Below are positions 9,052 to 25,984 of a DNA stretch of 37,603 nucleotides, one piece after another. The translations under genes and the position numbers were made by a program. Below the pieces are notes generated by a model. That model had not been told where the DNA came from. It ran no database searches and worked only from the letters and a program-made list of their open reading frames with translations. The DNA comes from Escherichia phage T7: the sequence record PV223881. The stretch is one strand, 5' to 3'. Numbering within the stretch: position 1 is the first letter of the stretch; each line of letters opens with the position of its first letter.

Positions 9052-10801
<1,750 letters not shown>

Positions 10802-10869
10802 CAGGATTCTTGATAGTTGTTTCATATGAAGAGATTGTTAAGTCACGATAATCAATAGGAGAAATCAAT

Positions 10870-12984
10870 ATGATCGTTTCTGACATCGAAGCTAACGCCC
10901 TCTTAGAGAGCGTCACTAAGTTCCACTGCGGGGTTATCTACGACTACTCCACCGCTGAGTACGTAAGCTACCGTCCGAGTGACTTCGGTGCGTATCTGGA
11001 TGCGCTGGAAGCCGAGGTTGCACGAGGCGGTCTTATTGTGTTCCACAACGGTCACAAGTATGACGTTCCTGCATTGACCAAACTGGCAAAGTTGCAATTG
11101 AACCGAGAGTTCCACCTTCCTCGTGAGAACTGTATTGACACCCTTGTGTTGTCACGTTTGATTCATTCCAACCTCAAGGACACCGATATGGGTCTTCTGC
11201 GTTCCGGCAAGTTGCCCGGAAAACGCTTTGGGTCTCACGCTTTGGAGGCGTGGGGTTATCGCTTAGGCGAGATGAAGGGTGAATACAAAGACGACTTTAA
11301 GCGTATGCTTGAAGAGCAGGGTGAAGAATACGTTGACGGAATGGAGTGGTGGAACTTCAACGAAGAGATGATGGACTATAACGTTCAGGACGTTGTGGTA
11401 ACTAAAGCTCTCCTTGAGAAGCTACTCTCTGACAAACATTACTTCCCTCCTGAGATTAACTTTACGGACGTAGGATACACTACGTTCTGGTCAGAATCCC
11501 TTGAGGCCGTTGACATTGAACATCGTGCTGCATGGCTGCTCGCTAAACAAGAGCGCAACGGGTTCCCGTTTGACACAAAAGCAATCGAAGAGTTGTACGT
11601 AGAGTTAGCTGCTCGCCGCTCTGAGTTGCTCCGTAAATTGACCGAAACGTTCGGCTCGTGGTATCAGCCTAAAGGTGGCACTGAGATGTTCTGCCATCCG
11701 CGAACAGGTAAGCCACTACCTAAATACCCTCGCATTAAGACACCTAAAGTTGGTGGTATCTTTAAGAAGCCTAAGAACAAGGCACAGCGAGAAGGCCGTG
11801 AGCCTTGCGAACTTGATACCCGCGAGTACGTTGCTGGTGCTCCTTACACCCCAGTTGAACATGTTGTGTTTAACCCTTCGTCTCGTGACCACATTCAGAA
11901 GAAACTCCAAGAGGCTGGGTGGGTCCCGACCAAGTACACCGATAAGGGTGCTCCTGTGGTGGACGATGAGGTACTCGAAGGAGTACGTGTAGATGACCCT
12001 GAGAAGCAAGCCGCTATCGACCTCATTAAAGAGTACTTGATGATTCAGAAGCGAATCGGACAGTCTGCTGAGGGAGACAAAGCATGGCTTCGTTATGTTG
12101 CTGAGGATGGTAAGATTCATGGTTCTGTTAACCCTAATGGAGCAGTTACGGGTCGTGCGACCCATGCGTTCCCAAACCTTGCGCAAATTCCGGGTGTACG
12201 TTCTCCTTATGGAGAGCAGTGTCGCGCTGCTTTTGGCGCTGAGCACCATTTGGATGGGATAACTGGTAAGCCTTGGGTTCAGGCTGGCATCGACGCATCC
12301 GGTCTTGAGCTACGCTGCTTGGCTCACTTCATGGCTCGCTTTGATAACGGCGAGTACGCTCACGAGATTCTTAACGGCGACATCCACACTAAGAACCAGA
12401 TAGCTGCTGAACTACCTACCCGAGATAACGCTAAGACGTTCATCTATGGGTTCCTCTATGGTGCTGGTGATGAGAAGATTGGACAGATTGTTGGTGCTGG
12501 TAAAGAGCGCGGTAAGGAACTCAAGAAGAAATTCCTTGAGAACACCCCCGCGATTGCAGCACTCCGCGAGTCTATCCAACAGACACTTGTCGAGTCCTCT
12601 CAATGGGTAGCTGGTGAGCAACAAGTCAAGTGGAAACGCCGCTGGATTAAAGGTCTGGATGGTCGTAAGGTACACGTTCGTAGTCCTCACGCTGCCTTGA
12701 ATACCCTACTGCAATCTGCTGGTGCTCTCATCTGCAAACTGTGGATTATCAAGACCGAAGAGATGCTCGTAGAGAAAGGCTTGAAGCATGGCTGGGATGG
12801 GGACTTTGCGTACATGGCATGGGTACATGATGAAATCCAAGTAGGCTGCCGTACCGAAGAGATTGCTCAGGTGGTCATTGAGACCGCACAAGAAGCGATG
12901 CGCTGGGTTGGAGACCACTGGAACTTCCGGTGTCTTCTGGATACCGAAGGTAAGATGGGTCCTAATTGGGCGATTTGCCACTGA
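10870..12984 (+). CDS. 5: DNA polymerase gp5
   Basis: 704-aa [42 protein letters not shown]... Confidence 0.98.
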
Positions 12985-13029
12985 TACAGGAGGCTACTCA
13001 AAAGGCATAAAACTATAGGAGAAATTATT

Positions 13030-13329
13030 ATGGCTATGACAAAGAAATTTAAAGTGTCCTTCGACGTTACCGCAAAGATGTCGTCTGACGTTCAGGCAAT
13101 CTTAGAGAAAGATATGCTGCATCTATGTAAGCAGGTCGGCTCAGGTGCGATTGTCCCCAATGGTAAACAGAAGGAAATGATTGTCCAGTTCCTGACACAC
13201 GGTATGGAAGGATTGATGACATTCGTAGTACGTACATCATTTCGTGAGGCCATTAAGGACATGCACGAAGAGTATGCAGATAAGGACTCTTTCAAACAAT
13301 CTCCTGCAACAGTACGGGAGGTGTTCTGA
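13030..13329 (+). CDS. 5.5: gp5.5 (H-NS binding protein)
   Basis: 99-aa ORF MAMTKKFKVSFDVTAKMSSDVQAILEKDML... Confidence 0.9.
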   Translation: MAMTKKFKVSFDVTAKMSSDVQAILEKDMLHLCKQVGSGAIVPNGKQKEMIVQFLTHGMEGLMTFVVRTSFREAIKDMHEEYADKDSFKQSPATVREVF

Positions 13330-13538
13330 TGTCTGACTACCTGAAAGTGCTGCAAGCAATCAAAAGTTGCCCTAAGACTTTCCAGTCCAACTATGTACGG
13401 AACAATGCGAGCCTCGTAGCGGAGGCCGCTTCCCGTGGTCACATCTCGTGCCTGACTACTAGTGGACGTAACGGTGGCGCTTGGGAAATCACTGCTTCCG
13501 GTACTCGCTTTCTGAAACGAATGGGAGGATGTGTCTAA
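13329..13538 (+). CDS. 5.7: gp5.7
   Basis: 69-aa ORF MSDYLKVLQAIKSCPKTFQSNYVRNN...; start overlaps 5.5 stop. Confidence 0.88.
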   Translation: MSDYLKVLQAIKSCPKTFQSNYVRNNASLVAEAASRGHISCLTTSGRNGGAWEITASGTRFLKRMGGCV

Positions 13539-13696
13539 TGTCTCGTGACCTTGTGACTATTCCACGCGATGTGTGGAACGATATACAGGGCTACATCGAC
13601 TCTCTGGAACGTGAGAACGATAGCCTTAAGAATCAACTAATGGAAGCTGACGAATACGTAGCGGAACTAGAGGAGAAACTTAATGGCACTTCTTGA
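13538..13696 (+). CDS. 5.9: gp5.9 (RecBCD inhibitor)
   Basis: ATG at 13538 overlapping 5.7 stop; MSRDLVTIPRDVWNDIQGYIDSLERENDSLKNQLMEADEYVAELEEKLNGTS. Confidence 0.85.
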   Translation: MSRDLVTIPRDVWNDIQGYIDSLERENDSLKNQLMEADEYVAELEEKLNGTS

Positions 13697-14585
13697 CCTT
13701 AAACAATTCTATGAGTTACGTGAAGGCTGCGACGACAAGGGTATCCTTGTGATGGACGGCGACTGGCTGGTCTTCCAAGCTATGAGTGCTGCTGAGTTTG
13801 ATGCCTCTTGGGAGGAAGAGATTTGGCACCGATGCTGTGACCACGCTAAGGCCCGTCAGATTCTTGAGGATTCCATTAAGTCCTACGAGACCCGTAAGAA
13901 GGCTTGGGCAGGTGCTCCAATTGTCCTTGCGTTCACCGATAGTGTTAACTGGCGTAAAGAACTGGTTGACCCGAACTATAAGGCTAACCGTAAGGCCGTG
14001 AAGAAACCTGTAGGGTACTTTGAGTTCCTTGATGCTCTCTTTGAGCGCGAAGAGTTCTATTGCATCCGTGAGCCTATGCTTGAGGGTGATGACGTTATGG
14101 GAGTTATTGCTTCCAATCCGTCTGCCTTCGGTGCTCGTAAGGCTGTAATCATCTCTTGCGATAAGGACTTTAAGACCATCCCTAACTGTGACTTCCTGTG
14201 GTGTACCACTGGTAACATCCTGACTCAGACCGAAGAGTCCGCTGACTGGTGGCACCTCTTCCAGACCATCAAGGGTGACATCACTGATGGTTACTCAGGG
14301 ATTGCTGGATGGGGTGATACCGCCGAGGACTTCTTGAATAACCCGTTCATAACCGAGCCTAAAACGTCTGTGCTTAAGTCCGGTAAGAACAAAGGCCAAG
14401 AGGTTACTAAATGGGTTAAACGCGACCCTGAGCCTCATGAGACGCTTTGGGACTGCATTAAGTCCATTGGCGCGAAGGCTGGTATGACCGAAGAGGATAT
14501 TATCAAGCAGGGCCAAATGGCTCGAATCCTACGGTTCAACGAGTACAACTTTATTGACAAGGAGATTTACCTGTGGAGACCGTAG
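13683..14585 (+). CDS. 6: 5'-3' exonuclease gp6
   Basis: 300-aa ORF MALLDLKQFYELREGCDDKGILVMDGDWLVFQAM... Confidence 0.97.
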   Translation: MALLDLKQFYELREGCDDKGILVMDGDWLVFQAMSAAEFDASWEEEIWHRCCDHAKARQILEDSIKSYETRKKAWAGAPIVLAFTDSVNWRKELVDPNYKANRKAVKKPVGYFEFLDALFEREEFYCIREPMLEGDDVMGVIASNPSAFGARKAVIISCDKDFKTIPNCDFLWCTTGNILTQTEESADWWHLFQTIKGDITDGYSGIAGWGDTAEDFLNNPFITEPKTSVLKSGKNKGQEVTKWVKRDPEPHETLWDCIKSIGAKAGMTEEDIIKQGQMARILRFNEYNFIDKEIYLWRP

Positions 14586-14686
14586 CGTATATTGGTCTGG
14601 GTCTTTGTGTTCTCGGAGTGTGCCTCATTTCGTGGGGCCTTTGGGACTTAGCCAGAATAATCAAGTCGTTACACGACACTAAGTGA
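14573..14686 (+). CDS. 6.3: gp6.3 (37 aa, GTG start)
   Basis: GTG at 14573 in frame to TGA at 14684-14686; ...AYIGLGLCVLGVCLISWGLWDLARIIKSLHDTK. Confidence 0.6.
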   Translation: METVAYIGLGLCVLGVCLISWGLWDLARIIKSLHDTK

Positions 14687-14706
14687 TAAACTCAAGGTCC
14701 CTAAAT

Positions 14707-14729
14707 TAATACGACTCACTATAGGGAGA
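14707..14729 (+). promoter_or_regulatory. T7 class III promoter phi6.5
   Basis: taatacgactcactatagggaga (exact consensus). Confidence 0.9.
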
Positions 14730-14780
14730 TAGGGGCCTTTACGATTATTACTTTAAGATTTAACTCTAAGAGGAATCTTT
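14730..14780 (+). promoter_or_regulatory. RNase III site R6.5 (predicted from position)
   Basis: Leader after phi6.5; structure not computed. Confidence 0.35.
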
Positions 14781-14783
14781 ATT

Positions 14784-15038
14784 ATGTTAACACCTATTAA
14801 CCAATTACTTAAGAACCCTAACGATATTCCAGATGTACCTCGTGCAACCGCTGAGTATCTACAGGTTCGATTCAACTATGCGTACCTCGAAGCGTCTGGT
14901 CATATAGGACTTATGCGTGCTAATGGTTGTAGTGAGGCCCACATCTTGGGTTTCATTCAGGGCCTACAGTATGCCTCTAACGTCATTGACGAGATTGAGT
15001 TACGCAAGGAACAACTAAGAGATGATGGGGAGGATTGA
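14784..15038 (+). CDS. 6.5: gp6.5
   Basis: 84-aa [33 protein letters not shown]... Confidence 0.88.
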
Positions 15039-15042
15039 CACT

Positions 15043-15309
15043 ATGTGTTTCTCACCGAAAATTAAAACTCCGAAGATGGATACCAATCAGATTCGAGCCG
15101 TTGAGCCAGCGCCTCTGACCCAAGAAGTGTCAAGCGTGGAGTTCGGTGGGTCTTCTGATGAGACGGATACCGAGGGCACCGAAGTGTCTGGACGCAAAGG
15201 CCTCAAGGTCGAACGTGATGATTCCGTAGCGAAGTCTAAAGCCAGCGGCAATGGCTCCGCTCGTATGAAATCTTCCATCCGTAAGTCCGCATTTGGAGGT
15301 AAGAAGTGA
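15043..15309 (+). CDS. 6.7: gp6.7 (virion protein)
   Basis: ATG 15043, MCFSPKIKTPKMDTNQIRAVEPAP... 88 aa. Confidence 0.85.
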   Translation: MCFSPKIKTPKMDTNQIRAVEPAPLTQEVSSVEFGGSSDETDTEGTEVSGRKGLKVERDDSVAKSKASGNGSARMKSSIRKSAFGGKK

Positions 15310-15710
15310 TGTCTGAGTTCACATGTGTGGAGGCTAAGAGTCGCTTCCGTGCAATCCGGTGGACTGTGGAACACCTTGGGTTGCCTAAAGGATTCGAAGG
15401 ACACTTTGTGGGCTACAGCCTCTACGTAGACGAAGTGATGGACATGTCTGGTTGCCGTGAAGAGTACATTCTGGACTCTACCGGAAAACATGTAGCGTAC
15501 TTCGCGTGGTGCGTAAGCTGTGACATTCACCACAAAGGAGACATTCTGGATGTAACGTCCGTTGTCATTAATCCTGAGGCAGACTCTAAGGGCTTACAGC
15601 GATTCCTAGCGAAACGCTTTAAGTACCTTGCGGAACTCCACGATTGCGATTGGGTGTCTCGTTGTAAGCATGAAGGCGAGACAATGCGTGTATACTTTAA
15701 GGAGGTATAA
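15309..15710 (+). CDS. 7: gp7 (host-range / virion assembly protein)
   Basis: ATG 15309 overlapping 6.7 stop; MSEFTCVEAKSRFRAIRWTVEHLGLPKGF... 133 aa. Confidence 0.85.
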   Translation: MSEFTCVEAKSRFRAIRWTVEHLGLPKGFEGHFVGYSLYVDEVMDMSGCREEYILDSTGKHVAYFAWCVSCDIHHKGDILDVTSVVINPEADSKGLQRFLAKRFKYLAELHDCDWVSRCKHEGETMRVYFKEV

Positions 15711-15713
15711 GTT

Positions 15714-16013
15714 ATGGGTAAGAAAGTTAAGAAGGCCGTGAAGAAAGTCACCAAGTCCGTTAAGAAAGTCGTTAAGGAAGGGGCTCGTCCGGTTAAACAG
15801 GTTGCTGGCGGTCTAGCTGGTCTGGCTGGTGGTACTGGTGAAGCACAGATGGTGGAAGCACCACAAGCTGCCGCACAGATTGTTGACGTACCTGAGAAAG
15901 AGGTTTCCACTGAGGACGAAGCACAGACAGAAAGCGGACGCAAGAAAGCTCGTGCTGGCGGTAAGAAATCCTTGAGTGTAGCCCGTAGCTCCGGTGGCGG
16001 TATCAACATTTAA
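15714..16013 (+). CDS. 7.3: gp7.3 (virion/tail-associated protein)
   Basis: 99-aa lysine-rich ORF MGKKVKKAVKKVTKSVKKVVKEG... Confidence 0.88.
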   Translation: MGKKVKKAVKKVTKSVKKVVKEGARPVKQVAGGLAGLAGGTGEAQMVEAPQAAAQIVDVPEKEVSTEDEAQTESGRKKARAGGKKSLSVARSSGGGINI

Positions 16014-16026
16014 TCAGGAGGTTATC

Positions 16027-16290
16027 GTGGAAGACTGCATTGAATGGACCGGAGGTGTCAACTCTAAGGGTTATGGTCGTAAGTGGGTTAATGGTAAACT
16101 TGTGACTCCACATAGGCACATCTATGAGGAGACATATGGTCCAGTTCCAACAGGAATTGTGGTGATGCATATCTGCGATAACCCTAGGTGCTATAACATA
16201 AAGCACCTTACGCTTGGAACTCCAAAGGATAATTCCGAGGACATGGTTACCAAAGGTAGACAGGCTAAAGGAGAGGAACTAAGCAAGTAA
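16027..16290 (+). pseudogene. 7.7: Gene 7.7 (HNH endonuclease-like) truncated after codon 87 by the inserted cassette
   Basis: GTG 16027 (ggagg SD); VEDCIEWTGGVNSKGYGRKWVNGKLV...GEELSK then TAA supplied by the inserted promoter's TAATACGACTC. Confidence 0.75.
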
Positions 16291-16310
16291 TACGACTCAC
16301 TATAGGCCTC
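16288..16310 (+). promoter_or_regulatory. Inserted consensus T7 promoter (pET-type, no lac operator)
   Basis: taatacgactcactatagg directly followed by cctctagaaataattttg; not at any native T7 promoter position. Confidence 0.9.
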
Positions 16311-16350
16311 TAGAAATAATTTTGTTTAACTTTAAGAAGGAGATATACAT
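16309..16350 (+). promoter_or_regulatory. Synthetic 5' leader: XbaI site plus gene-10 (pET) RBS
   Basis: tctagaaataattttgtttaactttaagaaggagatatacat, then NdeI catatg at the start codon. Confidence 0.9.
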
Positions 16351-17874
16351 ATGGGCAGCAGCCATCATCATCATCATCACAGCAGCGGCGCTAAGACTCA
16401 AGCAGAAATAAATAAACGTTTAGACGCTTATGCAAAAGGTACAGTAGACAGTCCTTATAGAATTAAAAAAGCTACAAGCTATGACCCATCGTTTGGTGTA
16501 ATGGAAGCAGGAGCAATTGACGCAGATGGTTACTATCATGCACAGTGCCAAGACTTAATTACTGATTATGTATTATGGTTAACAGATAATAAAGTTAGAA
16601 CTTGGGGTAATGCTAAAGACCAAATCAAACAAAGTTATGGTACTGGATTTAAAATACATGAAAATAAACCTTCTACAGTACCTAAAAAAGGATGGATTGC
16701 TGTATTTACATCCGGTAGTTATCAGCAATGGGGTCACATAGGTATTGTATATGATGGAGGTAATACTTCTACATTTACTATTTTAGAGCAAAACTGGAAC
16801 GGTTACGCTAATAAAAAACCTACAAAACGTGTAGATAATTATTACGGATTAACTCATTTTATTGAGATACCTGTAAAAGCAGGAACTACTGTTAAAAAAG
16901 AAACAGCTAAGAAAAGTGCAAGTAAAACACCTGCACCTAAAAAGAAAGCAACACTAAAAGTTTCTAAGAACCATATTAACTATACAATGGATAAACGTGG
17001 TAAGAAACCTGAAGGAATGGTAATACACAACGATGCAGGTCGTTCTTCAGGGCAACAATACGAGAATTCATTAGCTAACGCAGGTTATGCTAGATATGCT
17101 AATGGTATTGCTCATTACTATGGCTCTGAAGGTTATGTATGGGAAGCAATAGATGCTAAGAATCAAATTGCTTGGCACACAGGAGATGGAACAGGAGCAA
17201 ACTCAGGTAACTTTAGATTTGCAGGTATTGAAGTCTGTCAATCAATGAGTGCTAGTGATGCTCAATTCCTTAAAAACGAACAAGCAGTATTCCAATTTAC
17301 TGCAGAGAAATTTAAAGAATGGGGTCTTACTCCTAATCGTAAAACTGTAAGATTGCATATGGAATTTGTTCCAACAGCTTGTCCTCATCGTTCTATGGTT
17401 CTTCATACAGGATTTAATCCAGTAACACAAGGAAGACCATCTCAAGCAATAATGAATAAACTAAAAGATTATTTCATTAAACAAATTAAAAACTACATGG
17501 ATAAAGGAACTTCAAGTTCTACAGTAGTTAAAGACGGTAAAACAAGTAGCGCAAGTACACCGGCAACTAGACCAGTAACAGGCTCTTGGAAAAAGAACCA
17601 GTACGGAACTTGGTACAAACCGGAAAATGCAACATTTGTTAATGGTAACCAACCTATAGTAACTAGAATAGGTTCTCCATTCTTAAATGCTCCAGTAGGA
17701 GGTAACTTACCGGCAGGAGCTACAATTGTATATGACGAAGTTTGTATCCAAGCAGGTCACATTTGGATAGGTTACAATGCTTACAATGGTGACAGAGTAT
17801 ATTGCCCTGTTAGAACTTGTCAAGGAGTTCCACCTAATCATATACCTGGGGTTGCCTGGGGAGTATTCAAATAG
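16351..17874 (+). CDS. lysK: Heterologous His6-tagged staphylococcal phage endolysin (LysK family: CHAP peptidase, amidase_2, SH3b cell-wall binding)
   Basis: [13 protein letters not shown] tag then [24 protein letters not shown]...YHAQCQDL (CHAP Cys) ...[15 protein letters not shown]; AT-rich codon usage unlike the T7 backbone. Confidence 0.9.
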
Positions 17875-17906
17875 TACTACAGCGTAAGACATGGAGACAC
17901 ATTTAA
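17875..17906 (+). other. Retained 3' end of gene 7.7 carrying the gene 8 RBS and overlapping stop/start (TAATG)
   Basis: tactacagcgtaagacatggagacacatttaATG immediately before gene 8, as in T7. Confidence 0.6.
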
Positions 17907-19516
17907 TGGCTGAGAAACGAACAGGACTTGCGGAGGATGGCGCAAAGTCTGTCTATGAGCGTTTAAAGAACGACCGTGCTCCCTATGAGACACGCGCTCA
18001 GAATTGCGCTCAATATACCATCCCATCATTGTTCCCTAAGGACTCCGATAACGCCTCTACAGATTATCAAACTCCGTGGCAAGCCGTGGGCGCTCGTGGT
18101 CTGAACAATCTAGCCTCTAAGCTCATGCTGGCTCTATTCCCTATGCAGACTTGGATGCGACTTACTATATCTGAATATGAAGCAAAGCAGTTACTGAGCG
18201 ACCCCGATGGACTCGCTAAGGTCGATGAGGGCCTCTCGATGGTAGAGCGTATCATCATGAACTACATTGAGTCTAACAGTTACCGCGTGACTCTCTTTGA
18301 GGCTCTCAAACAGTTAGTCGTAGCTGGTAACGTCCTGCTGTACCTACCGGAACCGGAAGGGTCAAACTATAATCCCATGAAGCTGTACCGATTGTCTTCT
18401 TATGTGGTCCAACGAGACGCATTCGGCAACGTTCTGCAAATGGTGACTCGTGACCAGATAGCTTTTGGTGCTCTCCCTGAGGACATCCGTAAGGCTGTAG
18501 AAGGTCAAGGTGGTGAGAAGAAAGCTGATGAGACAATCGACGTGTACACTCACATCTATCTGGATGAGGACTCAGGTGAATACCTCCGATACGAAGAGGT
18601 CGAGGGTATGGAAGTCCAAGGCTCCGATGGGACTTATCCTAAAGAGGCTTGCCCATACATCCCGATTCGGATGGTCAGACTAGATGGTGAATCCTACGGT
18701 CGTTCGTACATTGAGGAATACTTAGGTGACTTACGGTCCCTTGAAAATCTCCAAGAGGCTATCGTCAAGATGTCCATGATTAGCTCTAAGGTTATCGGCT
18801 TAGTGAATCCTGCTGGTATCACCCAGCCACGCCGACTGACCAAAGCTCAGACTGGTGACTTCGTTACTGGTCGTCCAGAAGACATCTCGTTCCTCCAACT
18901 GGAGAAGCAAGCAGACTTTACTGTAGCTAAAGCCGTAAGTGACGCTATCGAGGCTCGCCTTTCGTTTGCCTTTATGTTGAACTCTGCGGTTCAGCGTACA
19001 GGTGAACGTGTGACCGCCGAAGAGATTCGGTATGTAGCTTCTGAACTTGAAGATACTTTAGGTGGTGTCTACTCTATCCTTTCTCAAGAATTACAATTGC
19101 CTCTGGTACGAGTGCTCTTGAAGCAACTACAAGCCACGCAACAGATTCCTGAGTTACCTAAGGAAGCCGTAGAGCCAACCATTAGTACAGGTCTGGAAGC
19201 AATTGGTCGAGGACAAGACCTTGATAAGCTGGAGCGGTGTGTCACTGCGTGGGCTGCACTGGCACCTATGCGGGACGACCCTGATATTAACCTTGCGATG
19301 ATTAAGTTACGTATTGCCAACGCTATCGGTATTGACACTTCTGGTATTCTACTCACCGAAGAACAGAAGCAACAGAAGATGGCCCAACAGTCTATGCAAA
19401 TGGGTATGGATAATGGTGCTGCTGCGCTGGCTCAAGGTATGGCTGCACAAGCTACAGCTTCACCTGAGGCTATGGCTGCTGCCGCTGATTCCGTAGGTTT
19501 ACAGCCGGGAATTTAA
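17906..19516 (+). CDS. 8: Head-to-tail connector (portal) protein gp8
   Basis: MAEKRTGLAEDGAKSVYERLKNDRAPYETRAQNCAQYTIPSLFP... 536 aa. Confidence 0.97.
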   Translation: MAEKRTGLAEDGAKSVYERLKNDRAPYETRAQNCAQYTIPSLFPKDSDNASTDYQTPWQAVGARGLNNLASKLMLALFPMQTWMRLTISEYEAKQLLSDPDGLAKVDEGLSMVERIIMNYIESNSYRVTLFEALKQLVVAGNVLLYLPEPEGSNYNPMKLYRLSSYVVQRDAFGNVLQMVTRDQIAFGALPEDIRKAVEGQGGEKKADETIDVYTHIYLDEDSGEYLRYEEVEGMEVQGSDGTYPKEACPYIPIRMVRLDGESYGRSYIEEYLGDLRSLENLQEAIVKMSMISSKVIGLVNPAGITQPRRLTKAQTGDFVTGRPEDISFLQLEKQADFTVAKAVSDAIEARLSFAFMLNSAVQRTGERVTAEEIRYVASELEDTLGGVYSILSQELQLPLVRVLLKQLQATQQIPELPKEAVEPTISTGLEAIGRGQDLDKLERCVTAWAALAPMRDDPDINLAMIKLRIANAIGIDTSGILLTEEQKQQKMAQQSMQMGMDNGAAALAQGMAAQATASPEAMAAAADSVGLQPGI

Positions 19517-19536
19517 TACGACTCACTATAGGGAGA
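19514..19536 (+). promoter_or_regulatory. T7 class III promoter phi9
   Basis: taatacgactcactatagggaga. Confidence 0.9.
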
Positions 19537-19615
19537 CCTCATCTTTGAAATGAGCGATGACAAGAGGTTGGAGTCCTCGGTCTTCCTGTAGTTCAACTTT
19601 AAGGAGACAATAATA

Positions 19616-20539
19616 ATGGCTGAATCTAATGCAGACGTATATGCATCTTTTGGCGTGAACTCCGCTGTGATGTCTGGTGGTTCCGTTGAGGAACATGAGC
19701 AGAACATGCTGGCTCTTGATGTTGCTGCCCGTGATGGCGATGATGCAATCGAGTTAGCGTCAGACGAAGTGGAAACAGAACGTGACCTGTATGACAACTC
19801 TGACCCGTTCGGTCAAGAGGATGACGAAGGCCGCATTCAGGTTCGTATCGGTGATGGCTCTGAGCCGACCGATGTGGACACTGGAGAAGAAGGCGTTGAG
19901 GGCACCGAAGGTTCCGAAGAGTTTACCCCACTGGGCGAGACTCCAGAAGAACTGGTAGCTGCCTCTGAGCAACTTGGTGAGCACGAAGAGGGCTTCCAAG
20001 AGATGATTAACATTGCTGCTGAGCGTGGCATGAGTGTCGAGACCATTGAGGCTATCCAGCGTGAGTACGAGGAGAACGAAGAGTTGTCCGCCGAGTCCTA
20101 CGCTAAGCTGGCTGAAATTGGCTACACGAAGGCTTTCATTGACTCGTATATCCGTGGTCAAGAAGCTCTGGTGGAGCAGTACGTAAACAGTGTCATTGAG
20201 TACGCTGGTGGTCGTGAACGTTTTGATGCACTGTATAACCACCTTGAGACGCACAACCCTGAGGCTGCACAGTCGCTGGATAATGCGTTGACCAATCGTG
20301 ACTTAGCGACCGTTAAGGCTATCATCAACTTGGCTGGTGAGTCTCGCGCTAAGGCGTTCGGTCGTAAGCCAACTCGTAGTGTGACTAATCGTGCTATTCC
20401 GGCTAAACCTCAGGCTACCAAGCGTGAAGGCTTTGCGGACAGTAGCGAGATGATTAAAGCTATGAGTGACCCTCGGTATCGCACAGATGCCAACTATCGT
20501 CGTCAAGTCGAACAGAAAGTAATCGATTCGAACTTCTGA
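19616..20539 (+). CDS. 9: Capsid assembly (scaffolding) protein gp9
   Basis: 307-aa acidic ORF MAESNADVYASFGVNSAVMSGGSVEEHEQNMLALD... Confidence 0.96.
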   Translation: MAESNADVYASFGVNSAVMSGGSVEEHEQNMLALDVAARDGDDAIELASDEVETERDLYDNSDPFGQEDDEGRIQVRIGDGSEPTDVDTGEEGVEGTEGSEEFTPLGETPEELVAASEQLGEHEEGFQEMINIAAERGMSVETIEAIQREYEENEELSAESYAKLAEIGYTKAFIDSYIRGQEALVEQYVNSVIEYAGGRERFDALYNHLETHNPEAAQSLDNALTNRDLATVKAIINLAGESRAKAFGRKPTRSVTNRAIPAKPQATKREGFADSSEMIKAMSDPRYRTDANYRRQVEQKVIDSNF

Positions 20540-25393: not shown

Positions 25394-25984
25394 ATGTGTT
25401 GGGCAGCCGCAATACCTATCGCTATATCTGGCGCTCAGGCTATCAGTGATCAGAACGCTCAGGCCAAAATGATTGCCGCTCAGACCGCTGCTGGTCGTCG
25501 TCAAGCTATGGAAATCATGAGGCAGACGAACATCCAGAATGCTGACCTATCGTTGTCAGCTCGAAGTAAACTTGAGGAAGCGTCCGCCGAGTTGACCTCA
25601 CAGAACATGCAGAAGGTCCAAGCTATTGGGTCTATCCGAGCGGCTATCGGAGAGAGTATGCTTGAAGGTTCCTCAATGGACCGCATTAAGCGAGTCACAG
25701 AAGGACAGTTCATTCGGGAAGCCAATATGGTAACTGAGAACTATCGCCGTGACTACCAAGCAATCTTCGCACAGCAACTTGGTGGTACTCAAAGTGCTGC
25801 AAGTCAGATTGACGAAATCTATAAGAGCGAACAGAAACAGAAGAGTAAGCTACAGATGGTTCTGGACCCACTGGCTATCATGGGGTCTTCCGCTGCGAGT
25901 GCTTACGCATCCGGTGCGTTCGACTCTAAGTCCACAACTAAGGCACCTATTGTTGCCGCTAAAGGAACCAAGACGGGGAGGTAA
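25394..25984 (+). CDS. 14: Internal core protein gp14
   Basis: ATG 25394 after ggagg SD; MCWAAAIPIAISGAQAISDQNAQAKMIAAQTAAG... 196 aa. Confidence 0.93.
   Translation: MCWAAAIPIAISGAQAISDQNAQAKMIAAQTAAGRRQAMEIMRQTNIQNADLSLSARSKLEEASAELTSQNMQKVQAIGSIRAAIGESMLEGSSMDRIKRVTEGQFIREANMVTENYRRDYQAIFAQQLGGTQSAASQIDEIYKSEQKQKSKLQMVLDPLAIMGSSAASAYASGAFDSKSTTKAPIVAAKGTKTGR

Follow-up and report, generated by a model that had tools for sequence, protein, structure and literature searches.

The DNA analysed here, referred to below as the window, is the whole 37,603-nucleotide stretch of Escherichia phage T7 deposited as PV223881. Gene 5, which codes for the T7 DNA polymerase of 704 aa, lies at 10870..12984 on the plus strand and is intact according to the ORF list, the sequence and the annotation of sister records; it ends with a TGA stop at 12982-12984 and carries the substitution D197N (position 11458) with respect to the reference NC_001604. 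It is followed on the same strand by gene 5.5 (13030..13329; H-NS-binding protein, 99 aa), the DNA of which is that of the wild type. The interval between both genes, 12985..13029, reads TACAGGAGGCTACTCAAAAGGCATAAAACTATAGGAGAAATTATT, and the ORF list and the sequence confirm the 45 bp that a preliminary description of this DNA had counted between the gene 5 stop and the gene 5.5 ATG. In BLAST comparisons with NC_001604, window 10788-13000 corresponds to T7 14273-16483 and window 13001-16287 to T7 16822-20108, the second block abutting the first one. Base-by-base extension placed the junction at 13000..13001, where T7 16483 is directly followed by T7 16822. BLAST, extension from both sides and multiple alignment coincide in that T7 16484..16821 is missing, which is nearly the whole of gene 5.3, annotated in NC_001604 at T7 16483-16839 with 118 codons. 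The loss, put beforehand at about 338 bp, amounts to exactly this segment of 338 bp, and alignment of the interval to T7 16468..16850 bore out the deletion, its size and its position. The deletion spares only the first base of the gene 5.3 ATG on one side and, on the other, the last 18 nt of the gene, stop codon included. Re-inspection of the ORF list revealed no ORF of about 118 codons in 12985..13029, and the initial 25 nt of gene 5.3 occur nowhere in the window, so that the reported absence of this gene stands.

What remains between the two genes is made up of three pieces, all on the plus strand. The first one, 12985..13000, is by alignment to the wild type the native intergenic region between genes 5 and 5.3 (T7 16468-16483), and it still holds the ribosome-binding site of gene 5.3, AGGAGG, now orphaned, together with the A of the 5.3 ATG. 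The second, 13001..13018, consists of the final 18 nt of gene 5.3 (T7 16822-16839), which were kept by design and no longer belong to any ORF in the gene 5.3 frame that has a start codon. The third, 13019..13029, is identified by its sequence as the native spacer between 5.3 and 5.5 (T7 16840-16850). Since the gene 5.5 ribosome-binding site TAGGAG (13016-13021), which spans the boundary between the 5.3 tail and the spacer, has been retained with them, the translation signals of gene 5.5 are untouched. Genes 5.5, 5.7, 5.9 and 6 are identical in DNA to the wild type. In the wild-type record, T7 16484-16821 is free of annotated promoters, terminators and other regulatory features. In scans of the window, neither a T7-promoter-like nor a terminator-like site was found near the junction, and the only sigma-70-like matches there were two on the minus strand, at chance level; beyond these, no promoter or terminator was found to be created or lost at this position.

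The preliminary description had called the product of gene 5.3 an HNH endonuclease. This label was rejected: in a Pfam search, wild-type gp5.3 matched the PD-(D/E)XK endonuclease family PF11645 (E 1.1e-10; 42.1 bits with a cut-off of 26.1; residues 5-96), and no HNH family was matched at E <= 0.1. The best relative of solved structure was 2OST, with an E-value of only 0.013 over residues 5-97 and with conserved DLV and KVQVK stretches; 2OST is the PD-(D/E)XK homing endonuclease I-Ssp6803I. By profile gp5.3 belongs to the same family as the I-Ssp6803I-type enzymes (PF11645), but it is free-standing and not intron-encoded. In phiYeO3-12-like phages this position is occupied by a different protein, also named gp5.3 and annotated as a homing endonuclease, and it may be the source of the HNH label.

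A search of 50,697 phage records yielded homologues of gp5.3 in only 100, and T7 itself or its laboratory derivatives account for about 57 of these, whereas the flanking gene 5/5.5 DNA matches 686 phage records. Among syntenic relatives the gene is sporadically present or absent, as is the case for a free-standing homing endonuclease gene, and judging from the sequences such a patchy distribution is in keeping with an accessory nuclease gene that is mobile. The same pattern, together with the dispensability of gp5.3, suggests that its loss is tolerated in nature, and it could therefore be argued that the window represents a spontaneous deletion or a natural 5.3-less T7 variant which arose through replication slippage or illegitimate recombination. 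However, when a direct repeat of the kind expected for a microhomology-mediated event was looked for at the end-points, none was detected: base-by-base extension gave an overlap of 0 bp between the deletion ends at 13000/13001. A second possibility, that the region was collapsed by a sequencing or assembly artefact, has nothing specific in its favour. The flanks of the junction are 100% identical to T7 and free of ambiguity, and, because the junction homology is 0 bp, the region offers no repeat prone to collapse.

The gene 5.3 junction is not the only departure of the window from the wild type. In BLAST blocks against NC_001604, the window is T7 with seven interruptions. Six are losses, in the 0.3-0.7 region (1.48 kb), at gene 1.4 (156 bp), within genes 1.7 (536 bp) and 3.8 (291 bp), across genes 4.3-4.7 (about 1.02 kb) and at gene 5.3 (338 bp). 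At the seventh, in gene 7.7, foreign DNA of 1587 bp has taken the place of 100 bp. The 0.4-0.7 and 4.3-4.7 junctions were placed from the BLAST blocks and from Table S2 of the study discussed below (PMC12153263), with the additional help of the oligonucleotide HA-gp4.3, a neighbour of the one used for gene 5.3, which matches the window at 80 of 80 positions.

Several of these interruptions affect nuclease-like genes. Like gene 5.3, the HNH_3 genes 2.8, 3.8 and 7.7 of T7 are small, dispensable and nuclease-like, and are interspersed among replication and structural genes; in Pfam searches, HNH_3 (PF13392) was matched by gp3.8 (E 3e-15), gp7.7 (E 2.6e-13) and gp2.8 (E 6.8e-6). In gene 3.8 the deletion junction lies at 9094..9096, where 291 bp (T7 11268/9-11558/9) have been removed in agreement with Table S2, leaving a 24-codon ORF without the HNH motif, which occupies residues 14-56 of gp3.8. 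Gene 7.7 is truncated (16027..16290, plus strand; ORF and Pfam evidence): its first 87 codons, followed by a stop, precede the foreign DNA that replaces 100 bp, and this remnant still covers the whole HNH_3 match (residues 29-70). The C-terminal 43 residues of gp7.7, which carry weak helix-turn-helix matches, are lost. Gene 2.8 remains as a full-length ORF of 139 codons (7684..8103, plus strand), with a single substitution, V33A (7781), with respect to NC_001604. The disruption of genes 3.8 and 7.7 and the integrity of gene 2.8 had thus been read correctly beforehand. Of the statement that three HNH-like genes are removed or broken, it holds that three nuclease-like genes are affected, but two of them are HNH genes (3.8 and 7.7), targeted in the same design as the third, the PD-(D/E)XK gene 5.3.

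The foreign DNA at gene 7.7 is a payload cassette of 1587 bp (16288..17874, plus strand) which, according to BLAST, the sequence and PMC12153263, takes the place of T7 20109-20208. It opens with a consensus T7 promoter (16288-16306), followed by a pET-type leader and a ribosome-binding site, and contains an ORF for a His6-LysGH15 protein of 507 aa (16351-17874). At the DNA level, this ORF and lysGH15, the endolysin gene of Staphylococcus phage G15, are 100% identical.

A genome of this constitution has been described. Zhang et al. (mBio 2025; PMC12153263; PV223880-PV223883) built the T7-B family of phages by the SMART method, in which T7 is divided into ten BAC-cloned segments. In these segments, gp1.4, gp1.7, gp3.8, gp4.3-4.7, gp5.3, gp7.7 and gp19.5 were removed by what the authors call "seamless" Red-ccdB deletion, with a second round of recombineering in which 80-nt oligonucleotides composed of two 40-nt arms replace an amp-ccdB cassette; the gp0.4-0.7 segment was omitted, and the genome was then reassembled and rebooted (PMC12153263). 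The purpose given by the authors was to free packaging capacity for payloads, and their list of non-essential regions was taken from Yuan et al. (NAR 2022), a study known as CiPGr (PMC12153263). The chassis chosen, T7-B, is 36.0 kb long and retains gp19.5; its plaque size is near that of the wild type and its burst size is 197 versus 224 for the wild type (PMC12153263). Inserts of 3 kb at the gp5.3, gp7.7 and gp10 loci were stable in T7-B, whereas wild-type T7 carrying them could not be rebooted (PMC12153263). Phage T7-B-G, listed in Table S1 under accession PV223881, is T7-B with a 1.6-kb PT7-lysGH15 cassette, providing an N-terminal 6xHis tag, at the gp7.7 locus (PMC12153263).

Our measurements coincide with this design. 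For gp5.3, the range entered in Table S2 is 16,484-16,821, 338 bp (PMC12153263), and the junction in the window corresponds to these coordinates exactly. The six further deletions in the window agree with the same table: all companion deletions of the T7-B lineage (gp0.4-0.7, 1.4, 1.7, 3.8, 4.3-4.7 and 7.7) are present, and the DNA of gene 19.5, retained in that lineage, is wild type. The 80-nt oligonucleotide HA-gp5.3 of Table S7, with arms of 40 + 40 nt, has its footprint at 12961..13040 on the plus strand; it matches 78 of the 80 window positions, with the junction identical and central. At each of the other two positions a single base has dropped out of a homopolymer run, the oligonucleotide as extracted from the text being 78 nt long instead of 80. 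Several other oligonucleotides in Table S7 are likewise short by 1-2 nt in homopolymer runs, and HA-gp1.4 is printed there with the same 40-nt left arm twice and no right arm (PMC12153263). These anomalies are probably errors of typesetting or text extraction and not real sequences.

The deposited sister genomes lead to the same result. Positions 12971-13030 of PV223880, PV223882 and PV223883, like those of the window, hold an identical 60-nt sequence across the 5.3 junction. T7-B (PV223880, 36016 bp) and the window have an identical prefix of 16289 nt and an identical suffix of 19731 nt, so that the window is T7-B plus exactly 1587 bp. Compared with T7-B-GJ (PV223882), with which it shares the LysGH15 cassette at the gp7.7 locus, the window lacks only a cassette of 829 bp, inserted in T7-B-GJ at gene 10. 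Among the phage records searched with the LysGH15 cassette, PV223882 was the only one to match at least 80% of its length. The gp5.3 junction, the six other deletions and the point substitutions of T7-B, T7-B-G, T7-B-J and T7-B-GJ are all common to the window. As for T7-B-G in particular, the PT7-His6-lysGH15 cassette of about 1.6 kb is present at gp7.7, a cassette at the gp10 locus is absent, and no difference from the window was detectable. Combining the genome lengths with the three sister records and PMC12153263, we infer that the window is T7-B-G.

In the light of these data, the interval between genes 5 and 5.5 is almost certainly what a seamless deletion of gene 5.3, made by design in the synthetic phage T7-B-G, has left behind. 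The deletion is thus already known, having been designed for a phage that has been published and deposited, and is neither natural nor new. Seven deletions were designed into the published chassis, that of gene 5.3 among them, and this deliberate nature of the pattern had been missed in the preliminary description. A spontaneous or natural origin would have to account for boundaries (after the first base of the start codon and 18 nt short of the stop) that coincide with a published design table and an oligonucleotide, and for the six other designed deletions and the pET-style His-tag cassette in the same genome; we consider its probability negligible. Just as implausible is the artefact, since the identical junction occurs in three independently deposited sister genomes and the authors report confirmation of the deletions by PCR and whole-genome sequencing (PMC12153263).

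A third alternative is that the deletion was not rebuilt by recombineering but inherited from one of the CiPGr mutants, which were obtained by CRISPR/Cas9 serial-transfer genome reduction (Yuan et al. 2022). The fact that the non-essential regions listed by Zhang et al. were drawn from the CiPGr work speaks for such a relationship, as does the match of the junction in one piece, with 98.3% identity, to MZ375249-51 (T7_90L and others). T7_90L (MZ375249; Yuan et al., NAR 2022, PMC9825161) also has a 338-bp deletion of gene 5.3 and a 45-bp spacer. We linked this record to the CiPGr study by its name, which fits the scheme of the study; the main text of the paper contains neither exact coordinates nor accession numbers, although it does include a statement on the dominance of gp5.3 (PMC9825161). 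However, the boundaries are not the same. In T7_90L, T7 16483-16820 is deleted and the junction reads CTACTC/CAAAGGC, as against 16484-16821 and CTACTCA/AAAGGC in the window, one base off register. This difference separates the two lineages and identifies the junction of the window as the version rebuilt by SMART; it is the junction of the SMART oligonucleotide and of the T7-B records. Furthermore, the CiPGr mutants, which arose by Cas9-assisted serial transfer, combine their other deletions differently and lack a payload (PMC9825161), whereas the LysGH15 cassette in the window is specific to the later work. Direct inheritance from a CiPGr mutant is therefore very unlikely, and a rebuilt deletion remains our preferred explanation. 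Regarding the boundaries themselves, the first base of the ATG is spared by the SMART deletions of gene 5.3 (beginning at T7 16484) and gene 1.4 (beginning at T7 7609), while the deletion of gene 5.3 in T7_90L starts at the A of the ATG (16483), with its junction between positions 1530 and 1531 of MZ375249. It seems that the shift in the 5.3 boundary came about when coordinates passed between the CiPGr and SMART studies with an offset of one base.

According to the construction that we propose for the window, the target in each segment would first have been swapped for an amp-ccdB cassette, and this cassette would then have been exchanged for an 80-nt oligonucleotide under ccdB counter-selection. 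At gene 5.3, the arms of the oligonucleotide would have joined T7 16483 to T7 16822 and removed 338 bp, leaving in place the gene 5 stop, the last 18 nt of the non-essential gene 5.3 and the ribosome-binding site of gene 5.5. By keeping this ribosome-binding site and the 5.3 tail, downstream expression would be preserved. The gain is packaging room for payload genes, 3.9 kb over the seven loci, used in T7-B-G for a His-tagged staphylococcal lysin at the gene 7.7 locus, and the product lost at gene 5.3 is a small accessory protein of the PD-(D/E)XK nuclease family. Our own data establish the position of the junction, the agreement with the deposited chassis and with the published coordinates and oligonucleotide, and the family of gp5.3; construction, viability and phenotypes are as given in PMC12153263.

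Other effects of the deletions were observed elsewhere in the window. The gp0.4-0.7 deletion (T7 1257-2737 in Table S2) begins inside gene 0.3 (Ocr, T7 925-1278). The resulting Ocr ORF (window 925-1320) keeps residues 1-111, loses the last 6 and acquires a foreign tail of 20 residues, giving 131 aa versus the original 117. In the deposited T7-B and T7-B-GJ records no gp0.3 CDS is annotated, and the first CDS is gp1.0 at 1690. Window 1386-1619 contains a 77-codon ORF in the gene 0.7 frame that ends at the native stop, and the C-terminal part of the gene 0.7 kinase/host-shutoff protein could still be made if an internal start were used. ORF 4.2 (window 10524-10829), an overlapping frame within the end of gene 4, has 101 aa versus 112 in the wild type; its first 97 residues are identical, and its C-terminus is altered because of the 4.3-4.7 deletion.

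The promoter complement has also changed. Matches to the T7 promoter consensus with up to 3 mismatches go from 15 in the wild type to 13 in the window. Promoters phi4.3 and phi4.7 were deleted along with genes 4.3-4.7 (window 10775-10854), and phi1.5 (window 6120-6140) lost the TAAT at -17..-14 to the gene 1.4 deletion and now has TTTA instead, while the LysGH15 cassette contributed one T7 promoter, at 16288. From phi4c, which lies within gene 4, as far as phi6.5, no promoter that matches the consensus is left.

Apart from the deletion junctions, 19 single-base differences from NC_001604 were found, most of them non-synonymous. They include D197N in gene 5 and V33A in gene 2.8, already mentioned, T118A, K211E and R212Q in gene 17 (32641, 32920 and 32924, respectively) and Q55S in gene 14 (25556-25557). 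Two G-to-A changes are located at window 21754 and 21805 (T7 24088 and 24139), in the gene 10B frameshift extension past the 10A stop. The sister records give the name "gp10B" to the CDS of the 345-aa major capsid protein. As the window is identical to T7-B outside the cassette, the 19 substitutions are common to both, and presumably they reflect the T7 stock of the laboratory.

Two corrections to annotation follow from this analysis: gp5.3 of T7 is a PD-(D/E)XK (PF11645) protein and not an HNH one, and the gene 7.7 described as deleted in the chassis still encodes the HNH motif region. On the other hand, since the window is a laboratory construct, the nuclease-like genes missing from it are uninformative about the natural evolution of T7 or the dynamics of homing endonucleases.

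The loss of gene 5.3 might have a corollary in the interaction with host defences. The title of a 2026 paper in Mol Cell (Xu et al.; doi 10.1016/j.molcel.2025.11.011) states that Ppl senses Gp5.3-cleaved 3'-OH DNA overhangs, and wild-type T7 is impaired on a host expressing ppl (PMC11482910). The main text of the PhageMaP preprint makes no mention of gp5.3, gp3.8 or gp7.7. Taken together, the sensing of Gp5.3-cleaved ends by Ppl and the impairment of wild-type T7 suggest that phages lacking 5.3 might escape Ppl. It is conceivable, although in our opinion rather doubtful, that the loss of gene 5.3 gave the T7-B chassis family a side-benefit in the form of escape from this single-gene anti-phage defence. 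If the Gp5.3 of the Ppl work is that of T7, 5.3-deleted phages should plate better than wild-type T7 on ppl+ hosts. Such an escape would follow from an engineered deletion that is already known, and would not amount to a new feature of the sequence. In practice, chassis phages without gene 5.3 may behave differently on hosts with the Ppl defence gene.
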